A stretch of DNA of 64,000 bases from the IMG/VR virus record IMGVR_UViG_3300032665_000006, positions 69,478 through 133,477 of that record, one strand, 5' to 3'. Position 1 is the first letter of the stretch, and every line of letters begins with the position of its first letter. The notes beneath the pieces are model-generated. The model ran no database searches. It was not told the DNA's origin and saw only the letters and a list, made by a program, of their open reading frames with translations. Below, piece by piece: positions 35,405 to 45,117 of the stretch. The DNA comes from a virus. A program made the translations under genes and the position numbers.

Positions 35405-35406
35405 CT

Positions 35407-35525
35407 TATATTGAAACACACTAGAAGAACCGTGACGAGCGGATTCATTTACCTTCCTCCAACAAGCGGAAGCCCATACCGGTCAGATATGGTGCCACTA
35501 CTAAGGATTAATGTGCTTCAATATA
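35407..35525 (-). ncRNA. unidentified structured RNA closed by a 17-bp helix
   Basis: TATATTGAAGCACATTA/TAGTGTGTTTCAATATA enclosing internal hairpins, between two tRNAs. Confidence 0.55.
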
Positions 35526-35528
35526 AAC

Positions 35529-35604
35529 TGGTCCAGGCGCAGAGATTTGAACTCTGAAAGTTCGGGTAAAAGCCGAATATGATAGCCAGTTTCATCACAC
35601 CTGG
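35529..35604 (-). tRNA. tRNA-Lys(UUU)
   Basis: Loop CT-TTT-AC, CCA. Confidence 0.85.
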
Positions 35605-35713
35605 ATTGTTTTTCTTGCTTGCGTAGAGCTTTATTGCTCTTGCGGTGCGAGCCCGCTTTCCGTTTATTTGCTAGTACAGCAAATATATTTCTTGCTTTCA
35701 TTTTACTTCTCCT

Positions 35714-36133
35714 TTAAAAATCTGTTAGTGGAACTAGTTCCTCTAAATTTACAACATCGGTCCAATCTTCAATATGGCCCGAGTAGTAACCGTTGTGTTC
35801 GTTGCGTACTTCAAAATCAATATATCCACGGTTAGTGCGAATAGTAAAGAAGCCATCTTCGACTACTTCTGCGTATTCGTCATCTGTCTCAACATTGACC
35901 CACTCTTTTTCTTCTACAGCAGTAACTAACGCACCACGTAGCAAATCAAAAGTGTTACCTTCTCCAATTACATCTCTACCTTGAAAGTGATTAATGTAAA
36001 CAGTATTACAACAATCGCCACATACATAAAATCCTAATACTTCTCCTTCGATGGTACGAAATGCAACTCTATCATGGTCTTCGTTTAGGAAAATACCATT
36101 AATGCGTTTTCCAACTAGCTTGTTTAAAACCAT
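35714..36133 (-). CDS. hypothetical phage protein
   Basis: GDCC...NGYYSG motifs; AGGAG SD. Confidence 0.65.
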   Translation of the reverse strand: MVLNKLVGKRINGIFLNEDHDRVAFRTIEGEVLGFYVCGDCCNTVYINHFQGRDVIGEGNTFDLLRGALVTAVEEKEWVNVETDDEYAEVVEDGFFTIRTNRGYIDFEVRNEHNGYYSGHIEDWTDVVNLEELVPLTDF

Positions 36134-36165
36134 GCCATTCTCCTTTTAAAATTTAAAACATATTA

Positions 36166-36241
36166 GGGGTGACCTGTGGAATTCGAATCCACCCTATCGG
36201 AATCACAATCCGAGGTGCTAACCGCTAACACTAAGGCCACA
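36166..36241 (-). tRNA. tRNA-His(GUG), CCA not encoded
   Basis: Loop TT-GTG-AT, C73; flanked by an extra inverted repeat. Confidence 0.85.
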
Positions 36242-36254
36242 CCTAATATGTCTA

Positions 36255-36330
36255 TGGTGCACCCTCTTGGTTACGCTCCAAGCCATCCAGCTCTTAGAGC
36301 TGGCGCTTCCACTAGGTTAGCTTAGGGTGC
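36255..36330 (-). tRNA. atypical tRNA, apparent anticodon UAA, no long variable arm
   Basis: 7-bp acceptor + ACCA; loop TC-TAA-GA; T-loop lacks TTC. Confidence 0.55.
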
Positions 36331-36546
36331 TCTACCTCTTGATATCCAACCATCATAGTTGTCGACATCTTTTACTTCGTCTACTCCTAGTTTACTCGTG
36401 CAGTTAGGATTTTCACTACACATCGTAACAAAGGTATGTCCAAGGCTACGATGGAATTGAGACGCAGATAATGCCATACTTAAATCATCAAACACTTCTG
36501 CGTGTGGTTTATTATCCACAGTATAATAAACTTTAAACATATTCAC
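36322..36546 (-). CDS. hypothetical protein
   Basis: FVTMCSENPN motif; stop lies inside the downstream tRNA. Confidence 0.55.
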   Translation of the reverse strand: MNMFKVYYTVDNKPHAEVFDDLSMALSASQFHRSLGHTFVTMCSENPNCTSKLGVDEVKDVDNYDGWISRGRAP

Positions 36547-36556
36547 TTTCTAAAAT

Positions 36557-36630
36557 TGGTACCTCGTGATGGTGTCGAACCACCGAGACCCACTTGTAAG
36601 GAGGGCAGTATACCGTTTACTTAACGAGGC
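36557..36630 (-). tRNA. tRNA-Val(UAC)
   Basis: Loop CT-TAC-AA, CCA. Confidence 0.85.
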
Positions 36631-36633
36631 ATT

Positions 36634-36707
36634 TGGTAGAGGTACTAAGATTTGAACTTAGACTAATGCCTTCAAAGGGCACGGTGCTGCCGTTACACTA
36701 TACCTCA
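36634..36707 (-). tRNA. tRNA-Gln(UUG)
   Basis: Loop CT-TTG-AA, CCA. Confidence 0.85.
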
Positions 36708-36713
36708 ACAGTT

Positions 36714-36787
36714 TGGTTGCGGGTTCTGGAATCGCACCAGAGACTAGGGCTTATGAGACCCTCGAGATACTCCTTCTCCAACCCGCG
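36714..36787 (-). tRNA. initiator-like tRNA-fMet(CAU)
   Basis: C1:A72 mismatch, CGCGGG acceptor, loop CT-CAT-AA; T-loop TGCGATT. Confidence 0.75.
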
Positions 36788-36793
36788 ATAGAT

Positions 36794-36868
36794 TGGTGGA
36801 CCGTGGGAGAGTCGAACTCCCTACTCCTGCGTGCAAGGCAGGTGTGTTCCCAATTATACCAACAGCCC
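36794..36868 (-). tRNA. tRNA-Ala(UGC)
   Basis: G3:U70, loop CT-TGC-AC. Confidence 0.9.
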
Positions 36869-37300
36869 TAAATTCTTTTGCCATTCATTAATAAATGGCA
36901 ATACTTCGTGTTTCCATTTGCTATGAACCATCTCGTGATGATTTGGGCATAGCGGTATTAAATTACTGGGCTTGTTATTTTTTCTATTCTCATCAATATG
37001 ATGGATAGCAACAATCTTGTCAAACCCGCAAATAATACACTTGTGTTCGTGATGCTGTTTTGCTATAGTCGCATAATGTGTGGCATTGTCTTTCCACCAA
37101 GAGCTTCTGTTATTAGCACAACTTCTACTACAAAATCTAGCTGTTTCAAATTGTTTGGTATTTTGTCTACCAGTCCAAACAAATTCTTTATTACAGCATC
37201 CGCAAATTTTAGTATGATCTTTTACTGGACCATACTTTCTATTTACTTTTGCTATTTGACCAGCTTTATAAGATTCTGTATAATATTTTCCGTTATTCAT
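36854..37300 (-). CDS. HNH endonuclease
   Basis: CIICG...IHHIDEN..NN...LCPNHH. Confidence 0.9.
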   Translation of the reverse strand: MNNGKYYTESYKAGQIAKVNRKYGPVKDHTKICGCCNKEFVWTGRQNTKQFETARFCSRSCANNRSSWWKDNATHYATIAKQHHEHKCIICGFDKIVAIHHIDENRKNNKPSNLIPLCPNHHEMVHSKWKHEVLPFINEWQKNLGLLV

Positions 37301-37315
37301 AATTTTTAATTACTT

Positions 37316-37389
37316 TGGAGCGGGTAGAGAGAATCGAACTCTCAACTAAACCTTGGCAAGGTCTCGGGTTACCATTACACCATACCCGC
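37316..37389 (-). tRNA. tRNA-Gly(GCC)
   Basis: Loop TT-GCC-AA, U73, CCA. Confidence 0.9.
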
Positions 37390-37393
37390 AAAT

Positions 37394-37909
37394 TTATAAA
37401 ATACTTTCTAATAACTTCCTAACATCTAATGTAATAGGTTGTAAGTTATTTACTACTGTAGAATCTTTACATATCCAATTAGCAACAGGCAGTCCTGGTT
37501 TTAAATTAAACTGCCCGCTTTTTGTTTCAAGATTCCTATTACATTCGTCCCACGATAATTGCGATATAGCAAACTTATGCGGGGCTGACTGAATACATAA
37601 CAAATAATCAAATGATTGATTAAATTTAGACTTATTAGTATTTTGAAGTGAAACTCGTCCTGTAATTGTATTCTTCGGTGAAAACATATCAGCTACTGAT
37701 TTAAATTCATATTTTGTATTAGTTTCTAAATCAATGCTATCATATCCTTCCTGGTCAACATACTTTAATCTTCCGTCTGTTGCTTTCTCTAATGCTAATG
37801 CTAGAACTTCGCCTTTGAGAAATCTATAAGATGGCTTATTAAGTTGCTTGCCAAGTTTAACTAAACAATCAACTACGGGTTGATAATCTACATCCTTCAA
37901 AAAACTCAT
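37394..37909 (-). CDS. putative PD-(D/E)xK nuclease-like protein
   Basis: E...GYD...YEFKS spacing. Confidence 0.5.
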   Translation of the reverse strand: MSFLKDVDYQPVVDCLVKLGKQLNKPSYRFLKGEVLALALEKATDGRLKYVDQEGYDSIDLETNTKYEFKSVADMFSPKNTITGRVSLQNTNKSKFNQSFDYLLCIQSAPHKFAISQLSWDECNRNLETKSGQFNLKPGLPVANWICKDSTVVNNLQPITLDVRKLLESIL

Positions 37910-37923
37910 AAGTTCCTTTAATT

Positions 37924-37997
37924 TGGAGCGGGATAAGAGAATCGAACTCTTGACCGAAGATTGGAAATCTGCTGTTTTACCATTAAACTAATCCCGC
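37924..37997 (-). tRNA. tRNA-Gly(UCC)
   Basis: Loop TT-TCC-AA, CCA. Confidence 0.9.
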
Positions 37998-37999
37998 AT

Positions 38000-38190
38000 T
38001 GGTGTCGTAACGGCAGGGCCCTTCAGGATGAGTTACGACGTTACTACATTGAGGCATTGCACCGTAGCTTACGCTACCCCCATCAACTGCCTCAAATTTT
38101 GTGTAGGGCTTCCACCTACTCCCACCTCGCTTTAAAGTCTGCGTGTCCAAGACTTAGTTCTATTGCTAGAACTGAAAATGTTACTTTCTA
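38000..38190 (-). ncRNA. structured non-coding segment ending in a CCA minihelix
   Basis: GTCGTAAC/GTTACGAC-A-CCA plus upstream hairpins. Confidence 0.45.
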
Positions 38191-38196
38191 ATACTT

Positions 38197-38228
38197 TGGT
38201 ACCTCGGGCCGGAATCGAACCGTTCGCG
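38197..38228 (-). pseudogene. tRNA remnant (T-arm, 3' acceptor strand and CCA only)
   Basis: cGGTTCGATTCCggcccgaggtACCA with no 5' half. Confidence 0.6.
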
Positions 38229-38234
38229 TTATAT

Positions 38235-38320
38235 TGGTGCCCGGAGCCGGACTCGAACCGGCATGCCTTTTAAAGCGGAAGATTTTAAGTCTTCTATGTA
38301 TACCATTTCATCACCCGGGC
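38235..38320 (-). tRNA. tRNA-Leu(UAA)
   Basis: Long variable arm, loop CT-TAA-AA. Confidence 0.9.
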
Positions 38321-38775
38321 GTTTGATCTATCTTGCGCCAACCTTTAGGTTTACCACCTTTTCTGTTAGCGGCAATTTTTGCCTTATGTTCTTCCGACTT
38401 TGGTTTTCCTTTATTTCCAGATCCATTAGTATTACCTAACATTACTTTGCTATTCATAGCAGATGCTTTTTCTAAACCATATTTTTCAACACGGCGTTCA
38501 AAAGGATTTTTATGTGTCCCAAACTCTTTACCATCAATGATGATATTATCGTAATCAGTGCCCCAATACAAATGTTTTGGATTACTACATTTACTATTAT
38601 TACAAGCATGACACAACAGTATGCGCCCGCTTGGAATAGTTGTATCTAAATATTGTGCTAATACACCTTTATGATTAGTAGAGTTACCGCCGCGTTCACA
38701 ACAAGGCTCGGATAAGTCTAAGTGAGCCCTGCGTTCTTCGCGAGATTTTTTAATAAATTCTTCTACTATAATCAT
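38311..38775 (-). CDS. HNH-like endonuclease with NUMOD3-like tail
   Basis: CHACNNSKCSNPKHLYWGT..DN; KPKSEEHKAKI. Confidence 0.8.
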   Translation of the reverse strand: MIIVEEFIKKSREERRAHLDLSEPCCERGGNSTNHKGVLAQYLDTTIPSGRILLCHACNNSKCSNPKHLYWGTDYDNIIIDGKEFGTHKNPFERRVEKYGLEKASAMNSKVMLGNTNGSGNKGKPKSEEHKAKIAANRKGGKPKGWRKIDQTPG

Positions 38776-38781
38776 AACAGT

Positions 38782-38810
38782 ATTATATAGTAATAATTTA
38801 TTACTGTCAA
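38782..38810 (-). promoter_or_regulatory. sigma70 consensus promoter
   Basis: TTGACA-N17-TATAAT, ATG 6 nt downstream. Confidence 0.75.
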
Positions 38811-38816
38811 ATATTT

Positions 38817-38901
38817 TGGTGGGCAAGGAGAGACTCGAACTCTCACGCCTTGCGGCACTGGCTTCTAAGACCAGCATGGCTACCAATTACATCACTCACC
38901 C
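38817..38901 (-). tRNA. tRNA-Leu(UAG)
   Basis: Loop CT-TAG-AA, long variable arm. Confidence 0.9.
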
Positions 38902-39366
38902 ATTTACTACTTTTAAACCTTTTAATCTATCTGCGGCATAACTAGCCGCAAACGCTTGTGGCTTAACTAGTGGCTCTACATTACATACGCCACGGATATA
39001 ACCAATAGCTTGACTTACAACATTAGAACTAGCATGAATTTCGTTAGGATTAATATCTAAATGTACTTCTACAGCACGACCTTCTAATACTTCTGCTAAT
39101 TTTAAATACAATTCACTAACCTTAAACACTTCAGTCATTAATCTAGTATTAGGTTTATCACAACGGTCATAATCTCGTTCTCTAGTCACTTCACCAAATA
39201 ACTTACAACCGTGATTACCGTCAATATGTACAACAATAGCGGCTGTATAGTCAGCATACCATTCTTTGCCACGCTTAATTCGTTCAGAGTCCACACCAAT
39301 ATAAATCTTAGTGTCTGGACCTTGAGCATCTATAAACTTTTTGATTTGTGGTATGTTAAACTTCAT
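38896..39366 (-). CDS. RNase H-like YkuK (DUF458) family protein
   Basis: IYIGVDS...RLMTEV...EVHLDIN...VKPQAFAASYAAD. Confidence 0.8.
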   Translation of the reverse strand: MKFNIPQIKKFIDAQGPDTKIYIGVDSERIKRGKEWYADYTAAIVVHIDGNHGCKLFGEVTRERDYDRCDKPNTRLMTEVFKVSELYLKLAEVLEGRAVEVHLDINPNEIHASSNVVSQAIGYIRGVCNVEPLVKPQAFAASYAADRLKGLKVVNG

Positions 39367-39387
39367 TATTCTCTTTCTTAAGTTATT

Positions 39388-39461
39388 TGGCGTCCCGGCA
39401 GGGATTCGAACCCCGACCAACAGTTTTGGAGACTGCGATGCTACCGTTACACTACCAAGAC
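39388..39461 (-). tRNA. tRNA-Trp(CCA)
   Basis: Loop CT-CCA-AA. Confidence 0.9.
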
Positions 39462-39481
39462 GTTGTACTACTATTTAATGT

Positions 39482-39558
39482 TGGTGCCTCAACCTAGACT
39501 CGAACTAGGGACCCTTGCGTTATCAACACAATGCTCTAACCAACTGAGCTATTGAGGC
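39482..39558 (-). tRNA. tRNA-Ile(GAU)
   Basis: Loop TT-GAT-AA. Confidence 0.9.
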
Positions 39559-39559
39559 A

Positions 39560-39636
39560 TGGTGGGTCTTGAGAGACTCGAACTCCCAACCGCTAGTTTC
39601 GAAGACTAGAACTCTAATCCATTGAGCTAAAGACCC
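39560..39636 (-). tRNA. tRNA-Arg(UCG)
   Basis: Loop CT-TCG-AA. Confidence 0.9.
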
Positions 39637-39641
39637 ATGTT

Positions 39642-39736
39642 TGGTAGTAGATATAGGTTATGATCCTATCCGTTGCAGCCCATCTGACCACTCTCCCAGG
39701 TTTATAAAACCCGGCCGCACACCAGTGCTATCTACC
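39642..39736 (-). tRNA. atypical tRNA-like RNA, apparent anticodon UAU
   Basis: 7-bp acceptor + ACCA, tiny D-arm, loop TT-TAT-AA, long variable region, non-canonical T-loop. Confidence 0.55.
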
Positions 39737-39746
39737 ATATTGTTAT

Positions 39747-39833
39747 TGGCGGAAAGTATTGGAGTCGAACCAATCCACCCATTGCTGAATGACAGATTAG
39801 CAATCTGTTGCCTTGCCGCTCGGCCAACTTTCC
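39747..39833 (-). tRNA. tRNA-Ser(GCU)
   Basis: Loop TT-GCT-AA, long variable arm. Confidence 0.9.
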
Positions 39834-39842
39834 TTAATTGTT

Positions 39843-39937
39843 TGGCGGAAGACAGAGGAGTCGAACCCCACCCGGCTCTTCACCAGGACCTGGTTTTCAA
39901 GGCCAGTCGCAGGACCATCCCCGCTGCATTATCTTCC
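39843..39937 (-). tRNA. tRNA-Ser(UGA)
   Basis: Loop CT-TGA-AA, long variable arm. Confidence 0.85.
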
Positions 39938-39943
39938 ATATTG

Positions 39944-40019
39944 TGGCTCCCCGAGCTGGGCTCGAACCAGCGACACCGTGATTAACAGTCACGTACTCTA
40001 CCAACTGAGCTATCAGGGA
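39944..40019 (-). tRNA. tRNA-Asn(GUU), second copy
   Basis: Loop CT-GTT-AA. Confidence 0.95.
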
Positions 40020-40027
40020 ATTGTTTT

Positions 40028-40105
40028 TGGTCTGTGAGGTAGGATTCGAACCTACAGCCTCCTGACTCCAGATCAGGCCGTCTACCAGATTGACATTACA
40101 CACAG
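40028..40105 (-). tRNA. tRNA-Pro(UGG) with atypical loop
   Basis: Loop TC-TGG-AG. Confidence 0.8.
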
Positions 40106-40113
40106 ATTGTTAC

Positions 40114-40188
40114 TGGTGCCCCAGAATGGAATCGAACCACCGAACCCGGCTTACAAGACCGGACCTTTACCACTAAGGATACAAGGGC
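40114..40188 (-). tRNA. tRNA-Thr(UGU), second copy
   Basis: Loop CT-TGT-AA. Confidence 0.85.
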
Positions 40189-40571
40189 TATTTTCTGTCT
40201 CTACCATTTCCTTTATTTTTAGCCTTATATGTAGGCGTCTGACTATGGCAGTTTGGGCATATTGCCCTTAAATTTTCTTCTTTGTTATTTTTATAATTCC
40301 CGTCGATATGATCTAATTCTAGATATAGCGGAAGACCATTATGTTCTTCGATACCACAAATAAGACATTTATTATTTTGTTTTGCCCTTATATAACGATG
40401 TATATACATACTAGTTTGATGTTTGCCTCGAAGGCCATCTTCTAAACCAGACTTCCACCGTTCTATGTAACTTTGATGCATTCCTTCTAAGTAATGCTTG
40501 CCACAATAGATTCTTTTTTCTTTATGTGTAAATACCGTAGAACATATTTTACAGCTATATTTTTGTAACAT
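40188..40571 (-). CDS. HNH endonuclease
   Basis: CLICG...LELDHIDGN..NN...ICPNCH; paralog of 23280-23696. Confidence 0.9.
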   Translation of the reverse strand: MLQKYSCKICSTVFTHKEKRIYCGKHYLEGMHQSYIERWKSGLEDGLRGKHQTSMYIHRYIRAKQNNKCLICGIEEHNGLPLYLELDHIDGNYKNNKEENLRAICPNCHSQTPTYKAKNKGNGRDRK

Positions 40572-40587
40572 ATAATCTTTCTTTAAC

Positions 40588-40664
40588 TGGCACTCTGTAG
40601 GGGTGACGATCCCCTCTTACCAACGTGAAAGGCTGGGGTCCTAACCAACATAGACGAACAGAGT
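40588..40664 (-). tRNA. tRNA-Glu(UUC)
   Basis: Loop CT-TTC-AC. Confidence 0.8.
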
Positions 40665-40670
40665 ATAACT

Positions 40671-40748
40671 TGGCGTCCTCACCGGGTGTCGATCCCGGTC
40701 CTACACCTTGAAAGGGTGTTGATCTAGCCAATCGTAATCTATGAGGAC
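40671..40748 (-). tRNA. tRNA-Glu(UUC), second type
   Basis: Loop CT-TTC-AA. Confidence 0.8.
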
Positions 40749-40754
40749 ATAACT

Positions 40755-40829
40755 TGGCGACTCCAGGGAGTAACGATCTCCCTCTTCCTCTTAGACAGAG
40801 AGGTGTGCGTCCATGAACACTTTGGAGCC
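40755..40829 (-). tRNA. tRNA-Asp(GUC)
   Basis: Loop CT-GTC-TA, G73. Confidence 0.8.
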
Positions 40830-40834
40830 TTTGT

Positions 40835-40908
40835 TGGTTGCGGGCTAGGGTAACGCTCCCTATTCCATCCTGGCTTATGAGACCGGAGTGTGGCTATCAC
40901 AACCCGCA
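40835..40908 (-). tRNA. degenerate fMet-like tRNA(CAU)
   Basis: GCGGG acceptor, loop CT-CAT-AA, reduced D-arm, T-loop AGCGTTA. Confidence 0.55.
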
Positions 40909-40916
40909 ATAGTTGT

Positions 40917-40994
40917 TGGAGGAACGGGTCGGATTCGAACCGACGACTTTACAGTTTTGCAGACTGTTGCTTTGGGCCACTCAGCCACCGTTCC
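40917..40994 (-). tRNA. tRNA-Cys(GCA)
   Basis: Loop CT-GCA-AA, U73. Confidence 0.9.
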
Positions 40995-41003
40995 GTTATT
41001 GTT

Positions 41004-41088
41004 TGGTGGGTGGTCATGGAGTCGAACCAAGTATGCCAGAGGCGTCTGATTTACAGTCAGGTGCGGTCGCCAGTGCCGCTCACCACCC
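41004..41088 (-). tRNA. tRNA-Tyr(GUA)
   Basis: Loop CT-GTA-AA, variable arm. Confidence 0.9.
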
Positions 41089-41108
41089 ATATAACGCTCT
41101 CTTTAGAA

Positions 41109-41220
41109 AGCGTGTAATAAAGCATACTAAGGCAATCATTTTTGCGCTGTGGAAAAGCGCCATGTCTTCGATCCGCGATGCCATTGACGGACCAGGTCTT
41201 TTAGTATGCTTTATTACGCT
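41109..41220 (-). ncRNA. unidentified structured RNA closed by a perfect 17-bp inverted repeat
   Basis: GTAATAAAGCATACTAA/TTAGTATGCTTTATTAC enclosing two GC-rich hairpins. Confidence 0.55.
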
Positions 41221-41316
41221 GTAGTTTTTTGCTCCACAAAAGGAGTTTCATCGTACAGGCCGCCCGTTTACTAGATGTTTTAAGTGCCTAGCGTGGACCT
41301 CGTTCCCACATAACAC

Positions 41317-41345
41317 ACTATACTACCTTACTGTTTATTTGTCAA
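41317..41345 (-). promoter_or_regulatory. sigma70-like promoter at the head of the tRNA array
   Basis: TTGACA-N17-TATAGT. Confidence 0.65.
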
Positions 41346-41509
41346 TCTTCTATTTGAAAATAAACAGCTTCTTTACGCTGCGAAGCAAGTAATACCTTTG
41401 CTCGCTCGATCTTATTCTGAATCAACTTCTGCTTTTGCTCATCACTGAGTGAATAACTATAAGCCTGTTCCACAATACGATCATTTAATTTACTATAATC
41501 TATTGTCAT
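41342..41509 (-). CDS. 55-aa protein directly downstream of the attenuator
   Basis: MTIDYSKLNDRIVEQAY...FQIED with AGGAAAG SD; not in the ORF track. Confidence 0.55.
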   Translation of the reverse strand: MTIDYSKLNDRIVEQAYSYSLSDEQKQKLIQNKIERAKVLLASQRKEAVYFQIED

Positions 41510-41523
41510 CTTTCTTTCCTTTT

Positions 41524-41559
41524 AAAAACAAAAAACCCGGAGTGTTTAGTTCCGGGTCC
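41524..41559 (-). terminator. intrinsic terminator with a competing antiterminator
   Basis: GGACCCGGA-N9-UCCGGGU followed by UUUUUGUUUUU. Confidence 0.8.
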
Positions 41560-41586
41560 TTAAAGTTTGTGATATTAAAATATTAC

Positions 41587-41748
41587 TTAATCATCATATC
41601 CTTCTTGGACCCTACTATAATCTTTCCCTGCCTCAATCATATTAAAGCCACTATTATGAATTGTTGAGCGTAAAGAGGCTACCGGGCTCCAGCAGAGTGC
41701 TGAACCTTGTGCTATTTGATACGTTACGGACAATCTTGTATTTTTCAT
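41587..41748 (-). CDS. putative 53-aa leader peptide
   Basis: MKNTRLSVTYQIAQGSALCWSPVASLRSTIHNSGFNMIEAGKDYSRVQEGYDD; ATG 9 nt after a perfect promoter. Confidence 0.6.
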   Translation of the reverse strand: MKNTRLSVTYQIAQGSALCWSPVASLRSTIHNSGFNMIEAGKDYSRVQEGYDD

Positions 41749-41757
41749 AATATGTTT

Positions 41758-41786
41758 ATTATAATGCTTAATTAATTCTTTGTCAA
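41758..41786 (-). promoter_or_regulatory. perfect sigma70 promoter
   Basis: TTGACA-N17-TATAAT. Confidence 0.85.
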
Positions 41787-41830
41787 CCTTCTTTTTTACT
41801 TCTCTGAACTTTTATTTACCTAATGTTGCA

Positions 41831-41859
41831 ATTATACGCATATTTCCATTGAAAGTCAA
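41831..41859 (-). promoter_or_regulatory. tandem sigma70 promoter
   Basis: TTGACT-N17-TATAAT. Confidence 0.7.
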
Positions 41860-41874
41860 CCACTTTTGGTAAAA

Positions 41875-42129
41875 TTAGTTGCCCCATCTTAAAAGGAAGA
41901 GTGATGAGTCGGTATCGCGAACAAAACTTACACCACATAAGTGTGGTTGATCCAATGTCCACATGGTCCAAGTCCAGTGTATGTAATGTCTACCTACTGT
42001 TGTTTCAAGCCAATATTCCATAGTATCCACTGCGGCGATCCAATCTAAATTTCCATTGGTTTCTATTATTGGCCAAGGCGCTACAGCTCTATAAGGAAGT
42101 TCAGGATGTTTGTCCCAAAGTGCTCGCAT
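41875..42129 (-). CDS. FxLxW-ending small protein
   Basis: VSFVRDTDSSLFLLRWGN. Confidence 0.6.
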   Translation of the reverse strand: MRALWDKHPELPYRAVAPWPIIETNGNLDWIAAVDTMEYWLETTVGRHYIHWTWTMWTLDQPHLCGVSFVRDTDSSLFLLRWGN

Positions 42130-42167
42130 AGAAGTATTTACGAGCCCAGAACTTTCATTATATGCTA

Positions 42168-42782
42168 TTAATTGATTAGATCTTCTATAGATTTTTCGAA
42201 CCCCACTGTAATTACTAATCTCGGTCCTGGGCTCAAATGTACGGTATGCACATAGTCTGTGCGTACAAATGCGCTAGGAGTTAGTAAATTTGATTCTGCA
42301 GCCGTAGCAGGGCCTAAATATTCCATTTTTTCTGCTACTGTTGTTCCTGGCATAGTTAGCCCAGTAAAAGGTAATCCAGTTCGAGTACTTACTTGAGTAA
42401 TCGAGTATAGTCTTTTATCAGTATGATGAAAATCGGTCCACCAATGCATAGGATCTTCTGGATTACCTTTTATTAATATATTAAATCTACTTTTTAAAAT
42501 TTTATGGTTTTCGTTATCCACATGGGGTCTTCCATAACCTTGATTTTCTAAATTAGCTAAATGTGCGGTTATGATTAGATTGGATGTATCACAATTATAT
42601 TGCGACAAATAATTTAATAATTCTTGTCCAGCACTTACTTCACGCCATTCGTGCTGTAACTTTCTTTGATCCCAATCTAAATTATGATAAAAATTTTCAT
42701 TAAAATGATTTTTATATCGATTAAGTATCCAATCTTTAGCTTCCTGCGAAAAATCAAAATCTGTTTTATGGAATAGTAACAT
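42168..42782 (-). CDS. HxD...H dioxygenase-like protein
   Basis: RPHVD...YVHTV..GPRL; recent tandem duplicate of 42766. Confidence 0.65.
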   Translation of the reverse strand: MLLFHKTDFDFSQEAKDWILNRYKNHFNENFYHNLDWDQRKLQHEWREVSAGQELLNYLSQYNCDTSNLIITAHLANLENQGYGRPHVDNENHKILKSRFNILIKGNPEDPMHWWTDFHHTDKRLYSITQVSTRTGLPFTGLTMPGTTVAEKMEYLGPATAAESNLLTPSAFVRTDYVHTVHLSPGPRLVITVGFEKSIEDLIN

Positions 42783-43413
42783 TGATTAACTCTTCTATAC
42801 TTTTATCGAAAGGCACAGTAATTACCAATCTTGGTCCAGGACTTAATTTTATAGTATGAATATAATCTGTGCGTACAAATGCGCTAGGAGTTAGTAAATT
42901 TGATGCTGTATCTGTAGCAGGACCTAGATACTCCATTTTTTCTTCATTAGTGTGTCCTGGCATAGATAAACTACTAAATTCTTGATTAGTACGTGTATTT
43001 AAAACATTACTATAGTACAAGCGTTTATCTGTATGGTGAAAGTTAGTCCACCAAAGCATAGGATCTTCTGGATTACCAAGCACTATTATATTAAATTTTG
43101 AAGTTACTGTTATTTTACCTTTAGCAGGTCCGTATAATTGTTCGGCGTCAACGTGCGGGCGACTATAATATGGTATTGTTAAATTTGCCAGATGAGCAGT
43201 TATGATCAGATTAGATGTATCGCAATTATATTGAGAAAGGTAAGACAATAATTCTTCTCCAGCAATAGATGCTCGCCATTCATGTTGTAGTTGATTTTGA
43301 ATCCAATCATAATTATGATAGAAATTTAATTTGAAGTGATCTTTATATCGGTTAAGTAACCAATCTTTAGCTTCTTGTGAGAAATCAAAATTTGTTTTAT
43401 GATATAACAGCAT
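42766..43413 (-). CDS. HxD...H dioxygenase-like protein
   Basis: RPHVD...YIHTI..GPRL. Confidence 0.65.
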   Translation of the reverse strand: MLLYHKTNFDFSQEAKDWLLNRYKDHFKLNFYHNYDWIQNQLQHEWRASIAGEELLSYLSQYNCDTSNLIITAHLANLTIPYYSRPHVDAEQLYGPAKGKITVTSKFNIIVLGNPEDPMLWWTNFHHTDKRLYYSNVLNTRTNQEFSSLSMPGHTNEEKMEYLGPATDTASNLLTPSAFVRTDYIHTIKLSPGPRLVITVPFDKSIEELINVTIP

Positions 43414-43913
43414 TATAATTTCCTACTAGTATTATCAAATTCTATCATAGTGACTCTTTTATTATCTAAAAAATATTTAATACCGTTAATAACTTGATTA
43501 ACATCAATGACTGTACGACCTAATTCAACGCACCTAGCATTATTTTCAAGAAAACCTGGTATCAACAATAAACATCTTTCTGGATAAAATGGTTTATGAT
43601 ATTGATATGTTTCGTGTATTATTTTTTTATTAACTTGATATGGATTGGTGCTATAGTATCCAGCAATACTTCCAATAGTAATTAAAGTTACTTTTGAATC
43701 TTTTAAATCTTTTATGATATTTGCTTGTATAGTACCTGAATAGGCATTATTGAATACTATGTCCGCTGATTTCATTATAGACAAGCACTCGTCGTACTTT
43801 GTAGTTAAATCGTATCCGTTACTACGACTTAACCCGATAACTTCTTCATTGGGGAATAATTCAACTATTTTGCTTCCTACTAAACCAGTATGTCCAGTGA
43901 TTACTATCTTCAT
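43413..43913 (-). CDS. short-chain dehydrogenase-like Rossmann protein
   Basis: ITGHTGLVG, FNNA, YxxxK. Confidence 0.7.
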   Translation of the reverse strand: MKIVITGHTGLVGSKIVELFPNEEVIGLSRSNGYDLTTKYDECLSIMKSADIVFNNAYSGTIQANIIKDLKDSKVTLITIGSIAGYYSTNPYQVNKKIIHETYQYHKPFYPERCLLLIPGFLENNARCVELGRTVIDVNQVINGIKYFLDNKRVTMIEFDNTSRKL

Positions 43914-43928
43914 TCTATATTTACCAAC

Positions 43929-43953
43929 AAAAAAAGGACCCGAAGGCCCTTTT
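43929..43953. terminator. intrinsic terminator
   Basis: aaaaaagg-a-cc-cgaa-gg-c-cctttt. Confidence 0.5.
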
Positions 43954-43970
43954 AGTTTAACTCGTAAAAA

Positions 43971-44423
43971 TTAGAACGAGTACTTAACACCTGCGGTTAC
44001 GATGTTGCCATTGTAAGCCTTAGTAATGTTATTACCTTTTTGGTAGGCATAATCAGCTACCAAATTTACATTCTTAACTACAGGATAGGCAATCCCTGCG
44101 CCAATAAATCCAGCACCACCATTACCTACGCCAGGTTTTTGTGTGTCAATAAATGCAGCTCCAGCACGAACATTAGTTTGTACGGGACCTAGTTTGATAA
44201 CGTCATAACTCACAGATGCTGTGTAACGATTAACATCAACAGCATTGGTAGTACTACGATCAAAAGTTCCTTGAACGCCAATTGCGCCAAATGATTGACC
44301 AACAGAAACGCCTGCGGTATCTTGTTTAGAGCCCATGTTGCGGCCACCAAAAACACCAACGTCAGTTGCGAAAGCAAAAGTAGTTGATGCTAATAATGCT
44401 ACTGCTAAAATTACTTTTTTCAT
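43971..44423 (-). CDS. outer-membrane beta-barrel protein
   Basis: Signal peptide; C-terminal AGVKYSF. Confidence 0.8.
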   Translation of the reverse strand: MKKVILAVALLASTTFAFATDVGVFGGRNMGSKQDTAGVSVGQSFGAIGVQGTFDRSTTNAVDVNRYTASVSYDVIKLGPVQTNVRAGAAFIDTQKPGVGNGGAGFIGAGIAYPVVKNVNLVADYAYQKGNNITKAYNGNIVTAGVKYSF

Positions 44424-44545
44424 ACTAATAGTTCCTTTATGTTTATACTACTGAACAAATATTTATTGTTTTTTTGCGTTGGCCTGCAAAAATTGCTAGG
44501 TTTTGGCATATTTTTAAGTTTAATATACGCATATAATGAAGTCAA

Positions 44546-44912
44546 AAGAATAGGGGTCGAAGCCCCTATCTGTTATTTTCTGTTTCGACGGATAACTCCG
44601 CAAAGCAGTGATTAAACTGCTAATGTTTGGCGTTGTGCTGTACGAGCAGAGAAACGAATTCCCTTACCTGAAACAGTTACTTCGCCTTTAGATGCGTTTG
44701 CATTTAAGTTTTTCGCTTGATTTACAGTCATCGCCTACTGTGTTGCCTCTTTCATTATCTCACCATGTCGAAACCTTGTCATCCCCACTGAAACATACTA
44801 CAGCTTTTGGCCTCGCTACCGATAACTCGGTTCGGTAATATGCTTCGGTGGAGATGCCGGGAATCGAACCCGGGTCCACAGCGCCTTCACTACGAAGGAA
44901 TTACAACAATTC
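44546..44912 (-). ncRNA. ssrA: permuted (two-piece) tmRNA
   Basis: Acceptor piece GGTTCGATTCCCGGCATCTCCACC precedes GGGGATG...TTTCGAC; G3:U70; TTAAAT-GCA resume signal; tag ends LAV*; terminal hairpin. Confidence 0.85.
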
Positions 44913-44913
44913 T

Positions 44914-45117
44914 TTACAGCGGAAGAATATTTGATGCTTGCTTGCCTTTAGGGCCTGCCACTACATCGAATGTTACCGCTTGATTCTCTTTTAAACTCTT
45001 AAAACCATTTGTGCTAATTGCGGAAAAATGTGCAAACAATTCCTCACCACCAGCATCGGGGGTAATAAATCCAAACCCTTTTGCATCATTAAACCACTTT
45101 ACTTTACCTGTTGCCAT
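44914..45117 (-). CDS. cspA: cold-shock protein
   Basis: [20 protein letters not shown] motifs. Confidence 0.95.

Follow-up and report, generated by a model that had tools for sequence, protein, structure and literature searches.

Why should one and the same RNA helix close four unrelated RNAs in a single phage genome? The question arises from the window studied here, the final 64 kb of a 133,477-base IMG/VR virus contig (IMGVR_UViG_3300032665_000006; completeness rating 39%). A tRNA array on its minus strand (34.7-45.5 kb) includes two RNAs of no recognized family, a tRNA-His gene and a permuted transfer-messenger RNA (tmRNA). A sequence-only reading of the window had noticed that a helix of about ARRCAYAYUA and its partner brackets the two RNAs, the tRNA-His and the intervening segment of the tmRNA, and had proposed a shared processing or protein-binding site, cut by an RNase III-like enzyme or by a YkuK-like protein encoded in the array. 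We find that the helix (hereafter, the stalk) is a structure conserved at the RNA level, and that it belongs to a family that the earlier reading had overlooked: it is spread across many T4-like phages and abuts upstream CCA ends. Our analysis suggests that it is probably a portable RNase III-type processing stalk, cut by the enzyme of the host.

Four helices in one array

All four helices lay on the minus strand where they had been placed, with all 40 core positions paired (Table 1). G-U pairs are confined to the minus-strand reading, and of the four copies the third alone, a perfect palindrome, also pairs on the plus strand. The variation among the copies (G-U versus G-C or A-U) preserves pairing, as had been claimed. 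The whole 133,477-base contig holds no other fully paired sets of ARRCAYAYUA and its partner beyond these four. Single arms matching the pattern number 13 in the window, with 4.9 expected, and none of 100 shuffles reached 13. Minimum-energy folds lengthen the four helices to about 15-20 bp, with z scores of -4.2 to -5.8. Stalk 1, whose outer extension is UUAUAUUG/CAAUAUAA, fills the gap between tRNA-Lys (CCA end, 35529) and tRNA-Arg (start, 35404). Stalk 3, with a core made up entirely of Watson-Crick pairs, lies downstream of the near-consensus promoter and upstream of tRNA-Tyr (41088).

Table 1. Stalks and neighbouring features in the window, with their coordinates.
Feature	Position	Strand	Description
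Stalk 1, with cargo RNA 1	35405-35527	-	core arms 35518-35509/35423-35414, AAGCACAUUA/UAGUGUGUUU; 85 nt inside
Stalk 2, diverged, around tRNA-His	36153-36254	-	arms 36253-36244/36165-36156, AGACAUAUUA/UAAUAUGUUU; 78 nt inside
Stalk 3, with cargo RNA 2	41111-41220	-	core arms 41211-41202/41129-41120, AAGCAUACUA/UAGUAUGCUU; 72 nt inside
Stalk 4, intervening segment of the permuted tmRNA	44787-44847	-	arms 44845-44836/44800-44791, AAGCAUAUUA/UAGUAUGUUU; 35 nt inside
tRNA-His	36240-36166	-	
Unannotated tRNA-like cloverleaf	36255-36330	-	folds as a cloverleaf, z -3.3; ACCA end one base before stalk 2
Two-piece (permuted) tmRNA gene	44521-44949	-	ARAGORN, tag peptide reported; RF04321 118.4 bits, RF01850 117.6 bits
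Terminator-like hairpin	44570-44549	-	in the tmRNA gene
Cold-shock protein gene	45117-44914	-	Pfam CSD; immediately upstream of the tmRNA; perfect consensus promoter 45174-45145
YkuK-like RNase H-fold protein gene	38896-39366	-	inside the tRNA array; Pfam PF04308, E 1.3e-16
Consensus sigma-70-type promoters	45174-45145, 41786-41758, 38810-38782, 34763-34735	-	
Near-consensus promoter	41345-41317	-	upstream of stalk 3

A covariance model was built from 36 stalks of related phages with unrelated cargos, all of the tRNA-array class described below (class B). It recovered copy 1 at 53.4 bits (E = 2.3e-12), copy 3 at 38.8/42.0 and copy 4 at 38.3, the E-values ranging from 2e-12 to 5e-8. The model prefers the minus strand for copy 1 (53.4 vs. 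33.9 bits on the plus strand) and copy 4 (38.3 vs. 24.0); the scores of copy 3, with its perfectly palindromic core, are about equal on the two strands. The helix around tRNA-His was not found at E≤10, and we therefore treat it as a diverged, non-canonical variant. As a single shared helix, then, the earlier proposal stands for copies 1, 3 and 4, and for the tRNA-His copy only in this diverged form, a distinction that the earlier reading had also missed.

A family of stalks and its cargos

IMG/VR was scanned for AAGCAYAYTA and TAGTRTGYTT separated by 30-60 or 61-91 bases, yielding at least 118 and at least 111 stretches, respectively. At least 268 fully paired elements are present in the scanned viral loci. 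The helix runs at least six pairs further outward in 117 of 268 elements among the matches listed; in a scan of bacterial and archaeal genomes with the same pattern, which served as a control for chance, the corresponding figure from the matches listed is 7 of 137, none with a flanking tmRNA acceptor end. The bare pattern is therefore often a chance match, and the extended structure is, on these matches, a feature of phages. Genes for a T4-type major capsid protein were present in the contig and in four large relatives (5/5).

Deduplication of the matches listed left 55 class A elements and 94 class B elements, together occupying at least 122 distinct loci, as well as 77 others, many of them probably due to chance. 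Class A is the spacer of permuted tmRNAs (...CUCCACCA-N-AAGCAYAYUA-cargo-UAGURUGYUU-YUGAU-GGGG...), in which the stem begins one base after CCA. Class B belongs to tRNA arrays (...CCAUAUUR-AAGCAYAYUA-cargo-UAGURUGYUU-YAAUAUGG...), and its helix of about 19 bp takes in the upstream CCA, frequently the 3' end of an upstream tRNA. Same-strand tRNA ends lie within 12 nt upstream of 39 elements among the matches listed. The loci are dense in such genes: 1373 tRNA or tmRNA calls were made in 147 of the 229 sources.

Strand and covariation place the conserved feature in the RNA. Among the matches listed, stalks containing G-U pairs lie on the strand of the neighbouring tRNA 68 times and on the opposite strand once. 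When the first 100 viral loci were searched with the covariance model, 144 matches were obtained at E≤0.001, both strands counted; 29 of these were inspected, and 20 proved to be elements that the pattern had missed, with compensatory variants such as AAGUACAUUA/UAGUGUACUU, AAGCAUAUUG/CAGUGUGUUU and AAACACAUUC/GAGUGUGUUU. Compensatory arms were also seen in tmRNA spacers outside the pattern selection, namely AAGUGUAUUG/CAAUAUACUU in locus L108, AGAUACAUUA/UAGUGUAUCU in L198 and AAGCAUAUUU/AAGUAUGUUU in L163. Variation is concentrated at core positions 4-6 and at position 10, the closing pair, which covary, and positions 1-3 and 7-9 are nearly fixed.

What the stalks enclose varies widely. The element interiors cluster into 154 groups among the matches listed, and the cargos, one of which is a tRNA, range from 3 to 242 nt; some carry tRNA-like T arms. 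In the syntenic slot between tRNA-Lys and tRNA-Arg, the window has a cargo of 85 nt and locus L068 an unrelated one of 58 nt. One cargo family (GAAUCYGUAAAA...) is found both in tmRNA spacers and between tRNAs. There are also "empty" stalks, with the full 19-bp stem and a 3-nt loop, between tRNA-Lys and tRNA-His (L005 6637-6677 and L075 1608-1648); that of L005 spans exactly from the CCA of tRNA-Lys to the G-1/G1 of tRNA-His.

The two cargos of the window without a recognized family, RNA 1 and RNA 2, had no Rfam 15 match at E≤5. RNA 1 has homologues in L173, L195 and L198, with compensatory change in 11 of 32 predicted pairs; RNA 2 was seen, outside the window, only in a near-identical relative, L072. 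This relative carries an additional stalk, AAACAUACUU/UAGUGUGUUU, with a cargo of 54 nt (L072 3601-3692, minus strand), downstream of its copy of stalk 3, at the place where the window has tRNA-Tyr.

Rfam contained no family for the stalk itself, either at the gathering threshold or at E≤5. Apart from the papers cited here, we went by literature listings, and found no description of this stem module in those on phage two-piece tmRNA, on T4 tRNA precursors and RNase III or on phage tRNA arrays, and a literature search with the 10-mers of the arms returned primers and similar items only. Against cultured phages, megablast of the 9.7-kb region gave only tRNA-sized pieces, and blastn of stalk 1 gave nothing relevant.

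Host RNase III as the candidate enzyme

Which enzyme would act on such a stem? Pertzev and Nicholson (PMC1540722) describe E. coli RNase III as needing a helix of at least 11 bp from the scissile bond to the helix end, and about 22 bp for full contacts. Its proximal box reads G-C; A-U/U-A; A-U; A-U/U-A, with the fourth pair adjoining the scissile bond and neither GC nor CG at position 2; the 2-bp middle box tolerates change; and the distal box, which adjoins the loop, reads U-A, then U.G. As numbered there, the boxes map to core positions 9 and 8 (distal), 5-6 (middle) and 3, 2, 1 and 0 (proximal) of the stalk. The 10-bp core plus position 0 attains the minimum length, total helix length being 15-20 bp for the window copies and about 19 bp for class B, and the division into free positions (4-6 and 10) and fixed ones (1-3 and 7-9) fits the map. 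In detail, window copies 1 and 4 have U-A at position 9 and U.G at position 8, and the latter pair occurs in 47-65% of the family. Copies 1, 3 and 4 have A-U at positions 1 and 2, and position 3 is G.U or G-C; the His copy has G.U at proximal box position 2. In class B, the 3' flank past the predicted cut (YAA^UAUGG, with ^ marking cuts here and below) and the 5' flank CCAUA form a second, mirror-image proximal box.

From this likeness we infer both the enzyme and the exact positions of the cuts. Host RNase III would recognise the conserved core of 10-11 bp by its outer end, AAG/YUU, which resembles a proximal box, and by its inner end, UU/AG, which resembles a distal box. Cleavage of the two strands, staggered by 2 nt, would take place at the core's outer end and split mixed transcripts of mRNA, tRNA and small RNA. 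Such a cut would release the cargo RNA closed by its stem; upstream, the tRNA or the acceptor piece of the tmRNA would be left with an end at CCA or within 4 nt of it, and downstream, a leader of 1-6 nt, for RNase P, would remain on the tRNA or tmRNA coding piece. An RNase III gene was found in none of the 21 large records that carry pattern matches, seven of which are at least 90% complete, nor in the window's own contig (39% complete); the host enzyme is therefore the natural candidate.

Cuts were predicted by rule: on the 5' arm, to the 5' side of position 0, and on the other side three bases past the end of the 3' arm. For stalk 1 they fall between 35520 and 35519 and between 35411 and 35410, so that tRNA-Lys would keep a trailer of 9 nt and tRNA-Arg a leader of 6 nt; for stalk 3, they fall between 41213 and 41212 and between 41117 and 41116. 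The tmRNA gene that holds stalk 4 scores above the gathering thresholds of RF04321 (118.4 bits vs. 47) and RF01850 (117.6 vs. 84), and its acceptor piece lies upstream of its coding piece, the arrangement that defines a permuted tmRNA. The layout of the spacer is ...CUCCACC^G-AAGCAUAUUA-35 nt-UAGUAUGUUU-CAG^U-GGGGAUG, with predicted cuts between 44847 and 44846 (after C75) and between 44788 and 44787, the latter leaving a 1-nt leader before G1 at 44786. A76 would then be added by a CCA-adding enzyme, a gene for which was not found in the contig (39% complete). Of the 55 distinct tmRNA spacers, 37 have the predicted cut exactly after CCA and eight exactly after CC, and in the remaining 10 it lies one base further on; the 3' spacer of class A is always four bases longer (three for the CC type), as pairing requires. 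It had also been claimed that tRNA-His and the tmRNA acceptor are the only tRNA-like ends here that lack an encoded CCA. This is correct: the former ends in CC followed by U and the latter in ACC followed by G, and 29 of the 30 tRNA genes that ARAGORN calls in the whole window encode CCA.

The proposal of a shared processing or protein-binding site is supported in part: one RNA-level helix surrounds unrelated cargos, most likely serves as a processing site, resembles RNase III substrates and is associated with both of the ends without encoded CCA, where the predicted cuts lie directly after CC. Several points weigh against RNase III. The determinants used above come from the E. coli enzyme, were defined on T7 R1.1 itself and may not be those of the host. 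Position 8 is C-G in copy 3 and U-A in the His copy, and across the family C-G replaces U.G in 34-52% of elements; at position 3 many have G.U, or A-U in the AAAC variants, in place of G-C. About half of class B has G-C at position 0, a catalytic antideterminant for the E. coli enzyme. According to PMC6212723, sites cut by E. coli RNase III in vivo usually hold G-C between the two cuts, whereas the predicted positions in class B enclose U-A/U-A. A rule-based scan of T7 for RNase III sites found R1.1 only (one match; shuffle mean 0.2). The 24 sequencing runs holding the region are of lake and freshwater metagenome DNA, with no RNA run among them. Finally, sequence conservation as strong as this could equally reflect a dedicated phage protein.

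Do other explanations account for the stalk better? One is that it serves as a structural clamp or cassette border, insulating the folding of the cargo, protecting its ends from exonucleases and offering short homology arms, with arm identity kept by exchange. Cargos are indeed exchanged at syntenic sites, such as the tRNA-Lys/tRNA-Arg slot of the window and L068, tmRNA spacers and inter-tRNA sites have one cargo family in common, and T4-like phages recombine readily. As a full account we consider it unlikely: stalks are kept even when they have no cargo, and the fixed register to CCA and G1, together with the position-specific division between conservation and covariation, points to recognition of particular base pairs. 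A clamp or border can, moreover, coexist with RNase III processing.

It is quite unlikely, in our estimation, that a dedicated phage protein, the YkuK-like RNase H-fold protein or another, binds or cuts the stem and that the likeness to RNase III sites is coincidental. The sequence is conserved far above what RNase III is usually thought to need, and a YkuK-like gene sits in the array; its domain (PF04308) occurs in eight of the 21 large records, including three of the four records that are at least 90% complete and have clear stalks. Such co-occurrence is expected from shared descent among related phages, however, and PF04308 is absent from one record (G013; 165,637 bases, 100% complete) whose tmRNA spacer, at L079, has a clear stalk. 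The protein encoded at 38896-39366 is thus a weak candidate, and the suggestion that it is the enzyme is not supported. The ten folded T7 hairpins discussed below, moreover, resemble one another in sequence, and the RNase III sites of T7 are cut by the host enzyme.

The inverted repeats might instead work at the level of DNA, either as termini of a small mobile element or as a recombinase site or one of the attC kind, and their position around variable cassettes, just after tRNA and tmRNA CCA ends, would suit that role. We nevertheless consider it very unlikely because of the 68-to-1 strand bias of G-U pairs among the matches listed; compensatory changes, too, preserve pairing in RNA, and none of the 18 array open reading frames (ORFs) scanned stood out as an integrase-type gene. 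Chance resemblance among hairpins of an AT-rich genome, to which the many chance matches to the bare pattern in the bacterial scan might point, can be dismissed, given that outward extension by at least six pairs separates the viral from the bacterial matches listed (117/268 vs. 7/137), that model E-values go down to 2e-12 and that cargo families and flanks recur.

Within the RNase III reading, the tRNA-His variant raises a further question: could the enzyme cut at both ends of the core? The arms of stalk 2 continue inward as GG/CC, followed by a U(-1).C73 mismatch and the acceptor stem, and the gene encodes neither A76 nor G-1. Five phages (the window, L117, L141, L223 and L058) share the arrangement AGACNNAUUAGG-U-[tRNA-His]-CC-UAAUNNGUUU, all with U at -1 and CC-U in place of CCA; the AGAC..GUUU helix is paired in 95 of 95 cells across them, and both middle pairs change compensatorily. 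Most of the 28 tRNA-His genes with G-1 from other phages in the loci examined encode CCA. Directly upstream, the unannotated cloverleaf, called by neither ARAGORN nor Rfam, has a 7-bp acceptor stem, the loop UCUAAGA in its anticodon arm and a non-canonical T loop, AGCGUAA; it overlaps the stop codon of the ORF at 36546-36322. The predicted outer cuts of the His element fall exactly after the ACCA of this tRNA-like upstream sequence and 19 nt short of the next gene's start codon (36133).

The core is quasi-palindromic (NAGYRYRUUN on both strands), and it may be a two-way RNase III site that takes over the making of tRNA ends, that of tRNA-His included, an extension we consider rather unlikely. 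A proximal and a distal box set could be read from either strand, directing the cut to the outer end or to the cargo end. The tRNA-His variant has its G.U displaced by one pair, and the inner cut would thereby move to exactly CC^U on the 3' side and G^U on the 5' side, yielding a tRNA-His with a CC end and an extra 5'-phosphorylated U at -1, where G is usual. Were this so, RNase III, and not RNase P, would supply the -1 residue that histidyl-tRNA synthetase needs, and the mature 3' end of the phage two-piece tmRNA would likewise be made by RNase III.

If host RNase III does cut the stalk, a single short, conserved stem serves a clade of T4-like phages as a universal wrapper. Such a stem would punctuate tRNA arrays, split two-piece tmRNA precursors exactly at the CCA end, thereby giving a concrete answer to how permuted tmRNA spacers are removed, and free a large, uncatalogued set of small structured RNAs with more than 100 different interiors, some of them tRNA-like. 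The stem is also a simple sequence tag for spotting phage small RNAs in metagenomes, and it suggests a compact natural design for freeing several RNAs from one transcript.

Neighbouring features and known systems

The array region encodes HNH endonucleases in addition to the genes in Table 1. Several promoters are distributed across it, so that a few long transcripts combine tRNAs, small RNAs and mRNAs. The tmRNA and the cold-shock gene appear to be co-transcribed from the promoter at 45174-45145. Two neighbouring paralogous ORFs of 204 and 215 aa, similar in sequence, lie at 42168-43413 (minus strand) and have no Pfam or PHROG match.

Further tRNA-like sequences were observed on the minus strand. 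A tRNA-Sec match between tRNA-Ser and tRNA-Asn (39847-39937; RF01852) scored 38.3 bits, below the threshold of 47. The spacer between tRNA-Asp and tRNA-Cys (about 40830-40916) resembles a non-canonical tRNA, GCGGGUU...CCCGCAACCA, with CAU at the anticodon position, and was called by neither ARAGORN nor Rfam. Directly after tRNA-Leu, a stretch at about 38197-38232 resembles the 3' half of a tRNA (GGUUCGAUUCCGGCCCGAGGUACCA); about 190 nt of non-coding sequence follow, and the hairpin that closes them (38040-38000), with its ACCA tail, folds no better than shuffles.

How does the stalk compare with RNAs already described? The small stable RNAs rnaC and rnaD of T4 (annotated as species 1 and 2), which have no assigned function and are co-transcribed with tRNAs, have a similar setting. 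They are not closed by such a stem, however, and the T4 tRNA region gave no match to the stalk model (best E 0.4). The bacterial Y RNA (YrlA) bound up with Ro was considered and rejected: its consensus stem differs, the stalks do not match RF02553, whose only weak matches are tRNA pairs (24 bits vs. a threshold of 69), and no TROVE gene was found in the 39%-complete contig.

Stalk 4 is exactly an intervening segment of the two-piece tmRNA type (RF04321, RF01849-51). The transcript of a permuted tmRNA is cleaved into two pieces by tRNA-processing enzymes, and one spacer holds a whole tRNA-Ala (PMC11915505); the available portion of that paper describes neither a conserved spacer helix nor a role for RNase III. 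In the Rfam consensus of the betaproteobacterial two-piece tmRNA (beta_tmRNA), the spacer starts CCACC-c-AAGggCAUU, close to both the stalk and T7 R1.1. This hints that bacterial two-piece tmRNA spacers may carry the same kind of site. In a search for bacterial beta-type tmRNA spacers, none of 151 genomes gave a match above the cut-off.

The likeness to T7 can be followed pair by pair. The upper stem of R1.1, AAGGUCAUUC/GAGUGGCCUU, has seven of 10 pairs in common with the stalk core AAGCACAUUA/UAGUGUGUUU, namely 1, 2, 3 (G-C vs. G-Y), 6, 7, 8 (U.G) and 9. Hairpins upstream of T7 genes 0.5 and 1.3 share AAGGUC...GAGUGGCCUU, of which AAG...CUU and AGUG are common to the stalk. Ten T7 intergenic hairpins that we folded have sequences similar to one another; apart from R1.1, their names and positions as RNase III sites are provisional, as the RefSeq record carries no annotation of them. 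T7 RNase III sites are cut by the host enzyme. Like the stalk, they are hairpins repeated within one phage genome, sharing sequence and lying between the genes of long transcripts, with AAG...CUU at the end proximal to the cut and UU over AG (U.G, U-A) distally. T7 sites have small loops, an internal loop and a single cut; the stalk, in contrast, is fully paired to about 19 bp, encloses cargos and abuts the CCA ends of tRNAs and tmRNA.

Enclosure is instead the hallmark of rRNA operons, in which leader and trailer flanks of a stable RNA pair into a long helix and cleavage by RNase III frees the RNA inside. Both these stalks and the T7 intergenic sites are textbook substrates, and RNase III-type stalks in themselves are thus already known. 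The stalks of rRNA are specific to their operons, whereas that of the phages is one conserved module of about 19 bp placed around many unrelated small RNAs; what is new is a wrapper that is portable and conserved in sequence.

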